Positions 27,001 to 30,000 of a stretch of 41,531 nt of DNA are shown in pieces. How positions within the stretch are numbered: position 1 is the stretch's first letter; the number at the start of each line of letters is the position of its first letter. The stretch comes from a virus (Duplodnaviria; Heunggongvirae; Uroviricota; Caudoviricetes), in IMG/VR virus record IMGVR_UViG_2526164634_000028. The stretch is one strand, 5' to 3'. A program made the position numbers.

Positions 27001-30000
27001 GCGGCACGTATTCATGCGGAAGTTCCGGCGGATGAAAGCCCGGAAATGACAGAAGGCTATGAAGGTTTCTATCACCTGGCGAGCATGAAAGGCACCGTTG
27101 ACCGAGCCGATATGCACTACATCATCCGTGATTTCGACCGTAAACAGTTTGAAGCGCGTAAACGTAAAATGATGGAGATCGCCAAAAAAGTGGGCAAAGG
27201 GTTACATCCTGATTGCTACATTGAACTGGTGATTGAAGACAGTTACTACAATATGCGCGAGAAAGTGGTTGAGCATCCGCATATTATCGATATCGCCCAG
27301 CAGGCGATGCGTGACTGCAATATTGAACCGGAACTGAAACCGATCCGCGGCGGTACCGACGGCGCGCAGTTGTCGTTTATGGGATTACCGTGCCCGAACC
27401 TGTTCACTGGCGGTTACAACTATCATGGTAAGCATGAGTTTGTGACTCTGGAAGGTATGGAAAAAGCGGTGCAGGTGATTGTCCGTATTGCCGAGTTAAC
27501 GGCGCAACGGAAGTCGTGATTGCCCGATGCGTATGTGGACTGCCAATTACCGGGATGAAACCGTTATATTGATACTGGTCAACATACTTATCGTGCCTAC
27601 AGGCGTTCAGTGCATGTAGGCACGATAAGGCGCAATCAGCGCCGCATCCGGCTTAAATCCAAACTTACCCTTCGAAGAACCAATACCCGCTATTGACCAG
27701 CGCCGCGAGCATCGCGAGGAATGACGGATCTTCCAGCGCATCGCCAAAATTCTCCGCAGTCAGCGCAATGTTGCTGGCGAGTGCATCCAGTGCCGGACGG
27801 TGCGGGGAATCGATCTTCTCACCATTGGCATACACGTCGTCGCCAATGCGCAATACGCGCAGACCACCCAGGCGCACCAGCACTTCACCTTGTTTCAGCG
27901 CATCGTAGATTTCATCTGGCTGATAAGGCGGTTCCGGCGGCGCGATATCCAGTTCATGACGTGACTGGGATATAAACTCGCCAAACCATTGCTTAAAGTG
28001 TTCCGGCTGGTTGATCAATTCGAGCATCATCTCACGCAGTTTATCCATCTCTTGCGGCAGAACGTCCGCAGGATGAGCGCGAGGTGGAACATCCGGATCG
28101 CTGTAGTAGTTGCCGCCCAGTTCACGTTGCAGCACATAATCGGCAAATCCGCTAATTAATTCCCGCGTATTTGGCGCGCGAAAACCCACGGAATAGTTCA
28201 TCGCATTTTCCAGCGCGTAGCCTTCATGCGGGAATCCTGGCGGAATATAAAGAATATCGCCAGGCTCCAGCTCTTCATCGATGATGGCTTCGAACGGATC
28301 GACCTGTAACAGATCCGGGTGCGGACAGTGCTGTTTCATTTGCAGCTTTTCGCCCACTCGCCAGCGACGACGACCGGTACCCTGAATGATAAACACGTCG
28401 TACTGATCGAGATGCGGGCCGACGCCGCCGCCCGGTACAGAAAAAGAGATCATCAGATCATCAATACGCCAGTCCGGTAGTTCACGGAACGGTCGCATCA
28501 GCGCGGCGGTCGGCTCATGCCAGTGGTTCACTGCCTGTACCAGTAATGACCAGTTGGTTTCACCGAGATGATCGTAGCTTTCGAACGGGCCGTGGCTGAC
28601 CTGCCATTTGCCATCCTGGTGACTGACCAGTCGACTGTCAACTTCGCTTTCCATCGCCAGACCCGCCAACTCGTCTGGAGAGATCGGGTCAATAAAATTA
28701 TTAAAGCCGCGTTTTAACACCACCGGGCGTTTCTGCCAGTGACGTTCAAGAAAATCGGGCCAGTTAAGAGTGAGTTGGTATTCCATGTTAAGCATCCACA
28801 GGCTGGTATCTGCAACCGATTATAACGGATGCTTAACGTAATGCGTGAAGTATGGACATATTTTATCAATTAGTGTTTTTTGCCGTTTCATAATGTTTCA
28901 GATTGTTCATTATGTTTTTGATTATAAACAGATTTGTGATTTTCCTTGTTCCAGCTTGTTTCACGTTGTAGCCCTTTGTGCAACGATCGGTGTAGTTAAT
29001 GGTGTAGTTAATTGTGATGACCGGAATCAAAATTATGAGCAGAGCACTTAACAAACTGAGCGATACACAGCTGAGGAAAATCAACGGCACACCCGCCCAA
29101 AAAACAGCCTTTCTTAATGACGGTGGAAACCTGAGCGTCAGGCATTCAACCAGTGGCCTTTTAACCTGGTATTTCACTTACAGGGCCGGAACGGGAAGGG
29201 GGGCACCACCGGAACGCATTAAGCTGGGAAATTATCCTGATCTGAGCCTGAAATCAGCCAGGGAAAAAGCCGCCCAGTGTCGCGCATGGCTGGCAGAGGG
29301 GAAAAATCCACGTCATGAGCTTAATTACACCGTACAGGAAGCGTTAAAGCCGGTAACGGTTGGCGATGCGCTCACCTACTGGCTTGAGTCGTACGCAAAG
29401 GAAAACCGCGTGGATTATGCCGCCCTGAAAAAGCGCCTTAATAATCACGTAATACAGCACATTGGTGCTATGCCGCTGGATAAATGCGAGCTACGGCACT
29501 GGCTGGCCTGTTTTGACCAGGTGGCAAAGCGAACGCCTGTTACTGCCGGATTCTTGCTACAGACGTGCAAACAGGCGCTTAAGTTCTGCCGGAGGCGGCG
29601 CTATGCAATCAGCAACGTTCTTGATGATATGAGTGTGGCGGACGTTGGGAAAAACCGGATATAAGCGAGCGTGTCTTAAGCACCAAAGAACTGGGCGAAT
29701 TATTGCAGGCACTGGACAAAAAAATATTCTCCCCCTACTACATCGCGTTAATCCGCCTCCTGATTGTGTTCGGATGCCGGACGGTAGAACTGAGGTTATC
29801 GGAGATCAGCGAGTGGGATTTTACCGAAATGCTCTGGACCGTTCCGAAGGAGCACAGCAAAACGAAGGTAGCCATATTCCGGCCTATACCGGAAGCAATA
29901 CTGCCGTTCATCACGCAGCTGGTGGAGCAGAACAGGCACACGGGCTTATTGCTGGGGGAAGTGAAACAGGAGGCCAGCGTATCGCAGTATGGAAGATTAG

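Follow-up and report, generated by a model that had tools for sequence, protein, structure and literature searches.

The DNA considered here is a 41,531-nucleotide (nt) stretch recorded as a virus in IMG/VR (IMGVR_UViG_2526164634_000028), referred to below as the window. It holds an island of ~11 kb set between the chromosomal genes roxA (ycfD) and phoQ, and it is 99.7% identical to Escherichia coli O55:H7 RM12579 (NC_017656.1) and 99.9% identical to the record of strain JB2. The island is a known phage-inducible chromosomal island (PICI) of the Gram-negative kind, of the EcCICFT073/EcCIRM12579 type. This identity follows from the RM12579 match together with the published ycfD-phoQ site and attachment (att) core; both EcCICFT073 (11.4 kb) and EcCIRM12579 (11.2 kb) are entered there at ycfD-phoQ, with GGACATATTT as their att core (Fillol-Salom et al. 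2018, Table S1, PMC6092414). Near each end, the island carries one copy of a long direct repeat. The two copies are almost certainly internal modules of the P and P' arms of the island's attP, the joined attachment site, with the crossover taking place within GGACATATTT.

The first half of the gene set comprises int, an alpA-like helix-turn-helix (HTH) gene, an Icd-like gene, a DUF4222 gene, and genes for a RepA-family helicase and SSB. The second half encodes a PerC-family regulator, a lambda-E-like major capsid protein, a decoration protein, and a small-terminase-like protein. The int-alpA-replication-packaging order, the rightward transcription, and the length of ~11 kb are those of the EcCICFT073 type. 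At least 80% of the island region is carried by 362 of 5,426 complete E. coli genomes. In the intact JB2 copy, Pfam assigns to Int an N-terminal arm domain (PF13356, Arm-DNA-bind_3, residues 8-95, E = 5e-18) and a C-terminal catalytic domain (PF00589). The features on which the argument depends are listed here, with the P' arm at the island's left end (attL) and the P arm at its right end (attR).

27665..28795, minus strand: roxA (ycfD), left chromosomal flank (open reading frame, ORF; annotated as roxA in JB2)
28854..28863, plus strand: attL identity block GGACATATTT, the true left junction (empty-site comparison; published core)
28861..28880, plus strand: island-side core-proximal block TTTTATCAATTAGTGTT (kept in islands at three other attB sites)
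28885..28917, plus strand: first 10-bp-phased GTTTCA/GTTCA boxes of the P' arm (Tandem Repeats Finder, period 10, 3.4 copies)
28946..28985, plus strand: TTGT array of the P' arm, four 10-bp-phased boxes TTGTTCCAGC TTGTTTCACG TTGTAGCCCT TTGTGCAACG (kept in sibling islands)
28989..29012, plus strand: doubled 12-mer of the P' arm, GGTGTAGTTAAT twice, a candidate arm-type Int site pair (conservation, geometry)
29035..30263, plus strand: int, tyrosine integrase (split ORFs; Pfam on the intact JB2 copy)
30311..30357, minus strand: third 10-bp-phased TTGT array, inverted, in the int-alpA spacer, without a doubled 12-mer (repeat and pattern search)
30628..30816, plus strand: alpA, winged-helix regulator of the Phage_AlpA family and possible recombination directionality factor (RDF) (PF05930; HTH regulator in JB2)
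39922..39961, plus strand: array of 10-bp-phased boxes of the P arm, TTGTGTCTAT TTGTTCCACG TTGTTTCATA CAGTGCACCG (repeat and pattern search)
39965..39988, plus strand: doubled 12-mer of the P arm, GGTGTAGTTAAT GGTGTAGTCAAT (geometry)
40031..40043, plus strand: exact match (AATCAATGGGTTG) to the consensus of integration host factor (IHF), a candidate bending site between P motif and core (consensus scan)
40057..40072, plus strand: attR, island-side ATAAAA followed by GGACATATTT (40063-40072) (empty-site comparison; published core)
40071..41531, minus strand: phoQ, right chromosomal flank (ORF; annotation)

Structure of the direct repeats

A repeat search of the whole window finds a 75-nt direct repeat at 28939-29013 and 39915-39989. 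The copies are 76% identical without gaps, lie 10,976 bp apart from start to start, and form the longest direct repeat around the integrase-to-terminase gene block. The 3' part of the repeat is CGGTGTAGTTAATGGTGTAGT[T/C]AATT, and each copy ends on its 3' side in a tandem pair of the 12-mer GGTGTAGTTAAT, with a single T-to-C change in the 39965-39988 pair relative to the 28989-29012 pair. Both pairs are also reported independently by Tandem Repeats Finder. Allowing up to 3 mismatches, the 24-mer occurs twice in the window, compared with 0.00 times in 100 dinucleotide-preserving shuffles. The repeat is real and far beyond chance.

A preliminary description of this locus, made from the sequence alone, had reported a shared 26-bp core with one mismatch and a further ~30 bp of gapped similarity; repeat searches and shuffles bear out both. 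The gapped similarity (TTGTTCCA...GTTTCA) is better seen as four 10-bp-phased TTGT boxes per copy, those at 28946-28985 making up the 5' portion of the left repeat. Because the boxes are phased at 10 bp, the ungapped alignment and an alignment shifted by 10 bp both score well. The pattern TTGT-N6-TTGT-N6-TTGT occurs 6 times in the 41.5-kb window, in three clusters, and 0.00 times in shuffles. Two of the clusters are the repeats themselves, and the third is the minus-strand array at 30311-30357, which strain 442/2 and EcCICFT073 also have at this position. Tandem Repeats Finder reports more phased boxes at 30572-30593.

Island ends and the empty site

Where does the island end? The unoccupied roxA-phoQ site of strain E2863 and of K-12, which differ by one single-nucleotide polymorphism, reads ...GTGAAGTATGG[A/G]CATATTTATTCATC... 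(in E2863, ...GTGAAGTATGGACATATTTATTCATCTTTCGG...) and contains zero copies of the repeat. Colinearity between the window and E2863 ends at 28863 and restarts at 40063, with a 10-bp overlap that is GGACATATTT, so that the island/chromosome boundaries are 28863/28864 and 40062/40063. The right-hand GGACATATTT block overlaps the phoQ stop codon (40071-40073). From the left core to the P' 12-mers there are 125 bp, and from the P 12-mers to the right core there are 74 bp. The DNA outside the repeats (28864-28938 and 39989-40062) is not present in empty sites and moves with the island to other loci.

An empty site with one repeat copy, consisting of left flank, one repeat, and right flank, was found in 0 of the 5,426 E. 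coli genomes, where the best matches were short by 233 bp. This result overturns the reading of the repeat as an att core. An att core is present once in attB, sits at the island/chromosome boundary, and is single at the attP junction; the repeat shows none of these properties. The label of island-end repeats in the preliminary description is not borne out: the copies are near the ends of the island but lie 125 bp (left) and 74 bp (right) inside the true junctions, and the long crossover region that it considered is contradicted by an empty site lacking the single copy that a true att core needs. It had also held that an empty site with both copies would count against it. No such site was seen, and the zero copies found are equally fatal to a crossover in the repeat. 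Its statement that the target is not a tRNA gene stands for this island, since ARAGORN finds no tRNA or tmRNA gene anywhere in the window.

The bases around the identity block suggest how the core itself may be built. The ATAAAA at attR is the left arm of the attP inverted repeat ATAAA-N9-TTTAT, and the TTTTAT in TTTTATCAATTAGTGTT is its right arm and a candidate core-type site, C'. The overlap is probably the 7-bp GGACATA at 28854-28860.

The attP junction and its geometry

To reconstruct attP, the left part of attR was joined to the right part of attL, and the product was searched by BLAST. A single uninterrupted match of 166 bp (99.4%) reveals the junction in E. coli NCCP 13894 (L191, NZ_CM167691.1), where two head-to-tail copies of the island occupy roxA-phoQ (2865-25294). 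In this array, the cores recur every 11,210 bp, at L191 positions 2865, 14075, and 25285, and the doubled 12-mers lie at 3000, 13977, 14210, and 25187, with the P-type (..GTCAAT) and P'-type (..GTTAAT) variants staying in their places. The order at the junction is P repeat, 74 bp, core, 125 bp, P' repeat, and the repeats are 209 bp apart. A unit of 11,210 bp that includes both repeats indicates that the crossover is not in the 26-mer, which predicts a unit of 10,976 bp and a single repeat. Circular-junction sequence had been put forward in the preliminary description as a check, and the attP-type junction of this tandem, with both repeats retained around one GGACATATTT, runs contrary to a crossover in the repeat. 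The array could be a true tandem integration or an assembly artefact. An exact search of viral and metagenome contigs gave no match to the window-type attP junction. The IMG/VR contig L023, from a sibling island of the clpS type, opens with the corresponding attP junction, where both repeats again stand around a single core.

Read from the P side, attP consists of four TTGT boxes, GGTGTAGTTAAT twice, 74 bp with the IHF-consensus site, and the core; these are followed by 125 bp with four TTGT boxes, GGTGTAGTTAAT twice, 22 nt, and the int ATG. Both modules have the same orientation, and their doubled 12-mers, 209 bp apart, are separated by ~20 helical turns. Measured from the GGACATA centre, the P doubled 12-mer ends 78-79 bp upstream and the P' doubled 12-mer starts 132 bp downstream, each with a period of 12; the P' doubled 12-mer ends 22 nt before the int ATG. 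The IHF consensus has only 6 matches in the whole window, counting both strands, and the block that contains it is kept in variant P arms despite variation in the surrounding spacer. We infer that IHF may bind at 40031-40043.

Sibling islands with other cores

A BLAST search with the left end of the island returns diverged relatives at other loci, with 75-88% identity. The cross-species comparison was drawn from IMG/VR and the E. coli collection. Two sites could be defined against an empty site in K-12:

Strain 442/2 island: mcaS/abgR-smrA, core AATATCGTGA
S22EC and TUM18530 islands: yljB-clpS, core ATGATAGTTAT

The cores found for 442/2 and S22EC agree with those published (Table S1, PMC6092414). 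End-to-end mapping of three islands (window, 442/2, and S22EC) places the doubled 12-mer 125-128 bp inward of attL and 71-74 bp inward of attR, with both copies in the same orientation and phased TTGT boxes before each. EcCICFT073 and the NCCP 13894 tandem have distances of 74 and 125 bp. When the P' arms are aligned, 25 of 26 positions of the 12-mer block are invariant and the remaining arm is ~75% identical; across islands with flanking arm DNA of ~75-80% identity, 23-24 of the 24 positions of the doubled 12-mer are conserved. A pattern search of IMG/VR returned 58 loci, including a fourth attB type. The same 12-mer accompanies at least four different cores. All of the attPs have ATAAA-N9-TTTAT around a variable centre, a pattern that suggests inverted core-type half-sites around a 7-bp overlap.

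The search of genome contigs with the integrase alignment gave two loci, one a Shigella copy and the other an irrelevant match. Two further IMG/VR candidates with tandem GGTGTAGTAAAT (2-3 copies; L031 2248-2271 and L068 363-398, 43% and 31% GC, respectively) were rejected as unrelated low-GC viral contigs. In L031, only a weak resemblance to the Int catalytic region was seen, ~365 bp upstream of the GGTGTAGTAAAT repeats; in L068, nothing matches the integrase.

Two observations concern the target sites themselves. In the IMG/VR records L020 and L057, P arms of the same type are joined to the fourth attB flank (...AATAAGTTATAGATATATCCCATTTATGACTCC...), which is not roxA-phoQ, abgR-smrA, or clpS. 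The abgR-smrA attB core AATATCGTGA lies ~80 bp upstream of the small RNA gene mcaS (L009, K-12, 2659-2752 and 2833-2842); hence, islands at this site separate mcaS from whatever is upstream.

Doubled motifs listed as att cores

The same kind of motif has been given as an att core for other islands. For EcCIDI14, the listed core is the exact 26-mer CGGTGTAGTTAATGGTGTAGTTAATT (PMC6092414 Table S1), and in clone D i14 (L195, NC_017652.1, 2549-13188), the published coordinates run from doubled motif to doubled motif. This island interrupts an ISEc45/IS110 transposase gene. The break in that gene is ~116-135 bp beyond the P' motif on the left, and ~58-71 bp beyond the P motif on the right. EcCIDI14 has an abgR/smrA-type attP at a secondary site with only ~4-5 bp of identity.

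For the yejM/proL islands (ED1a.1, ATCC 25922, and others), a doubled motif of the TTTGTAGTTATACGTTTGTAGTTATACGG, TTTGTAGTTATACG type is listed as the att core (PMC6092414 Table S1). The yejM-type island was studied in ATCC 25922 (L192, NZ_CP009072.1, 2043-2337 and 13506-13620), where the real identity block is the 3' terminus of the tRNA-Pro gene proL; the fragment at attR has lost 2 nt and is thereby damaged. At attL, the doubled TTTAGTTATACG is found 130 bp past the proL 3' end, and at attR, 61 bp before the proL fragment. On the B' side, the flanking DNA agrees with K-12, and the P' arm contains an additional inverted pair. The arm-motif classes now number three: GGTGTAGTTAAT, TGTGTATTGC, and TTTAGTTATACG.

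Proposed function of the repeat modules

What would such modules do? The best explanation is that the repeats are the P-arm and P'-arm accessory modules of an attP of the EcCICFT073/EcCIRM12579 type, a reading that is very likely correct, and we are similarly confident that the modules are accessory sites for recombination. The integrase has an N-terminal arm domain, a non-core motif is present on both arms at a fixed distance, and the motif follows the arm domain. The preliminary description had offered integrase binding sites at both ends as its second possibility. That idea is supported: the repeats belong to the island, lying in the P and P' arms of attP, are kept with different cores, and accompany an arm-domain integrase. 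As a whole, the preliminary interpretation is partly supported, being wrong on the crossover and the island ends and right on the integrase sites.

Heterobivalent integrases use the N-domain on arm-type sites and the C-domain on the core, assisted by IHF and an RDF (PMC2951348). For EcCICFT073, excision, circularisation, and int-attP-dependent integration have been shown experimentally, as have helper-phage-dependent induction and transfer (PMC6092414). Strand exchange takes place in GGACATATTT, likely within the 7-bp overlap GGACATA flanked by ATAAA/TTTAT, and not in the repeats. In the mechanism that we propose, the N-terminal Arm-DNA-binding domains of an Int tetramer would occupy the four 12-mer half-sites, the C-terminal Int domains would act at the core, and bending of the IHF type would join arms and core. 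Int on the P' pair would probably also autoregulate int, which is proposed because this pair lies 22 nt upstream of int, as for P4 Int and KplE1 IntS. The phased TTGT/GTTYCA boxes are most likely sites of a second protein, and the third TTGT array, which lacks any 12-mer, suggests that such a protein exists. AlpA, acting as RDF and regulator and a member of the same protein family as Vis, is the first candidate; otherwise, the boxes may be weaker Int sites. That Int arm domains specifically bind the 12-mers is reasonably likely. That the TTGT boxes are AlpA sites is a more tentative suggestion.

The preference for Int comes from tracking the motifs with their proteins, using 36 distinct Int/AlpA combinations beside the HE motif (that of the helper-embedded PICIs, or HE-PICIs, described below) and 7 beside the GGTGTAGTTAAT motif:

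Within the HE class: Int arm domains 57-100% identical, AlpA 29-100%
Between the HE and GGTGTAGTTAAT classes: Int arm domains 42-53% identical, AlpA 35-59%

The motif classes split by arm-domain identity, for which the two ranges do not overlap, and not by AlpA identity, for which they do. This pattern favours Int.

Several points weigh against the proposal. The HE loci were gathered by exact motif search, so that constancy of the motif holds by construction, and covariation is in any case an indirect type of evidence from which Int can be suggested as the binder. Within the GGTGTAGTTAAT group, the types of Int arm, AlpA, and TTGT box are almost perfectly linked, so that covariation does not separate them. 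The assignment of the 12-mers to Int is that of a candidate only, and the authors of the HE-PICI study leave Int arm, AlpA, or another protein open. A simple scan found no sigma-70 consensus promoter upstream of int, leaving autoregulation without sequence support. The exact IHF consensus is confined to phoQ-type arms, the abgR- and clpS-type arms having weaker matches. Finally, int in the window carries a frameshift, owing to the loss of one base from an A-run at ~29650 relative to JB2, although this is probably a homopolymer sequencing error.

Alternative explanations

The most obvious alternative is that the 26-bp core and its extended similarity are the attachment site itself, duplicated on integration and marking the island ends. 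It draws on the repeat being the longest direct repeat to bracket the integrase-to-terminase block and on the listing of the 26-mer as "att site core" of EcCIDI14 (PMC6092414 Table S1). This alternative is extremely unlikely given the zero copies in the empty site, the absence of a one-copy site from all 5,426 genomes, and the DNA outside the repeats, which is missing from empty sites and travels to other loci. Moreover, the NCCP 13894 tandem keeps both repeats, 209 bp apart, around GGACATATTT, and the split IS110 fragments at EcCIDI14 border DNA that lies outside both repeats (~116 bp on the left, ~58 bp on the right). The ~75-125 bp of non-chromosomal DNA outside each repeat, and the fact that tandem and nested PICIs occur, could instead be taken to mean that a nested or older element left the repeats behind as scars, a remnant with a secondary attB that the present island entered via the 26-mer. 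There is next to no chance of this: the same outer segments are found at the same distances at no fewer than four unrelated attB sites and in EcCICFT073, the putative remnant alone is present in 0 of the 5,426 genomes, and the natural tandem unit is 11,210 bp rather than 10,976 bp.

If the repeats are arm modules, they might still serve something other than Int. AlpA, as an Xis/Vis-like protein, or some other factor could bind the doubled 12-mers, with the Int arm sites elsewhere, such as in the TTGT boxes. AlpA is needed for PICI excision and induction (PMC6092414; PMC11773190) and is named as a possible binder by the HE-PICI authors (PMC10111431); RDFs often bind tandem direct repeats, and a P' pair 22 nt from int could allow regulation (PMC2951348). 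We consider this unlikely. The HE motif occurs beside AlpAs with identity as low as 29%, while the Int arm domains beside it are at least 57% identical, and it is the arm domain, not AlpA identity, that cleanly separates the motif classes. In addition, the number of half-sites, four, is that of the arm domains in an Int tetramer, and the array upstream of alpA consists of TTGT boxes without a 12-mer, as if the boxes were the regulator sites. A function outside recombination, in packaging (pac/cos), replication, or insulation, or TTGT boxes that are simply intrinsically bent DNA, would fit the position of the modules near both island ends and the 10-bp phasing of T-rich boxes, which can curve DNA. 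It is nonetheless very unlikely, as the candidate origin iterons are elsewhere (34404-34600, after the RepA helicase gene), specific bases (TTGTTC) are conserved in the boxes beyond T-richness, and the modules keep a fixed distance to the crossover, both at every mapped attB site and in two further motif classes, which links them to attP.

Other features of the island

Relative to JB2, the window has four single-base deletions, at 29650, 30941, 32234, and 39424, all in homopolymer runs (A6 to A5, A4 to A3, G9 to G8, and A6 to A5, respectively). Over the int segment, an exact match to the window was found in 0 of the 793 E. coli genomes that carry the segment, the best being 99.7%. The four deletions are probably homopolymer sequencing errors and not real pseudogenisation. 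An identity with the cf-PICI EcCIEDL933 was considered and rejected, that element being 15.4 kb in length, having a full capsid/portal/TerL set, and being located elsewhere.

Directly after the RepA-family helicase gene (33005-34405), the segment 34404-34600 contains GTGAGG-containing iterons (AAAAGTGAGG...) in direct and inverted orientation, with ~84-bp spacing. This cluster is probably the replication origin of the island. The small-terminase-like gene (38391-38933) is surrounded by 76-nt inverted repeats (38215-38290 and 39080-39155) that are 91% complementary, and EcCICFT073 has another gene at the terminase-like position (L194 11160-11594). The arrangement suggests that the terminase-like gene and its inverted repeats form an exchangeable or invertible cassette. 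A terminator-like 30-nt element, a hairpin plus T-run (..AGCCGGAGNAATCCGGCTTTTTT..), is present within the island in three copies (35550-35579, 35914-35943, and 38187-38216). A terminator scan at the right end of the island gave no match.

Implications

What are the implications of these findings? For annotation, it should not be assumed that the longest direct repeat around a satellite or island is its att site; in this island, the assumption shifts both ends by 75-135 bp. The published table contains the same trap, with the EcCIDI14 26-mer and the doubled TTTAGTTATACG-type motif of the yejM/proL islands given as cores. The doubled-motif attP, described only for HE-PICIs, extends to two more lineages, giving three motif classes with one geometry. 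The modules also offer concrete sites for studying PICI intasome assembly and the control of excision by AlpA, and they may help in the design of PICI-based delivery vehicles with re-targeted integration. The general picture of tyrosine integrase action is unchanged.

A broader proposal can be made, which we hold tentatively. PICIs with P4-like Arm-DNA-bind_3 integrases may share a fixed attP scaffold, with an arm motif that is constant within a clade, a reprogrammable centre, and TTGT arrays that act as AlpA operators. A doubled motif of 12-bp period, placed ~79 bp upstream of the crossover and ~132 bp downstream of it, would possibly form this scaffold together with phased GTTYCA/TTGT boxes and an IHF site. 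If this is true, the 7-9 bp centre between ATAAA and TTTAT would be freely reprogrammed, which would explain frequent switching of attB. Likewise, if the TTGT arrays are AlpA operators, the array in the int-alpA spacer among them, excision would be tied to the induction circuit. The att cores of EcCIDI14, of the yejM-type islands of ED1a/ATCC 25922, and possibly of NmCIFF6 would then be arm sites and not crossover sites.

Comparison with known systems

The island resembles EcCICFT073 and EcCIRM12579 in its ycfD/roxA-phoQ site, its GGACATATTT core, its length of 11.2-11.4 kb, and its gene order (int, alpA, replication, perC, capsid, decoration, terS-like). In EcCICFT073, the repeats recur with unchanged distances, and Int is identical at 397 of 410 positions. 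There are two differences: the published account gives only the 10-bp core, with no flanking repeat modules (PMC6092414), and the window copy has the four homopolymer single-base deletions, one of which breaks int.

As in the P4 Int/Vis and KplE1 IntS/TorI systems, int abuts attL, an arrangement that places arm-type and RDF sites in the int upstream region. Both Int and the RDF repress int in KplE1 (Panis 2010, PMC2951348), and the same is stated for P4 from Piazzolla 2006 as cited in PMC2951348. Unlike in P4 and KplE1, regulation of int is here something that we infer, and its promoter is not confidently predicted. The attP sites of phage lambda (P1, P2, P'1-P'3) and of other heterobivalent tyrosine integrases likewise have repeated non-core motifs on both arms within ~150 bp of the crossover (PMC2951348). 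The island further resembles lambda in that its integrase has a separate N-terminal arm domain, that arm and core have a candidate IHF site between them, and that phased direct repeats are candidates for RDF sites. The number, sequence, and spacing of the sites differ, with two symmetric candidate doubled sites here versus 2+3 in lambda.

A close parallel in attP design is the doubled motif of the HE-PICIs, tgTGTATTGCantgTGTATTGCa (tgTGTATTGCa), which is present twice in the same orientation, at 81+/-2 bp on the upstream side of the attP centre and at 132+/-2 bp on the downstream side (PMC10111431, NAR Genom Bioinform 2023). As candidates for the protein bound there, the authors of that study name the Int arm domains, AlpA, or some further protein; in other PICIs, they report, the motif was not found (PMC10111431). 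The two systems differ in that GGTGTAGTTAAT has only TGTA in common with the HE motif, the Int arm domains are 42-53% identical, and the target here is the chromosomal intergenic roxA-phoQ site rather than a late gene of a helper prophage. They are alike in having a tandem pair of 12-bp period, with co-oriented copies at 78-79 and 132 bp in the present island, and a P' copy just upstream of a homologous Arm-DNA-bind_3 integrase. The island, its core, and the arm-site architecture in a sister clade were already known. The new element is small: the EcCICFT073 lineage and the ED1a/ATCC 25922 lineage have the same scaffold, each with its own motifs.

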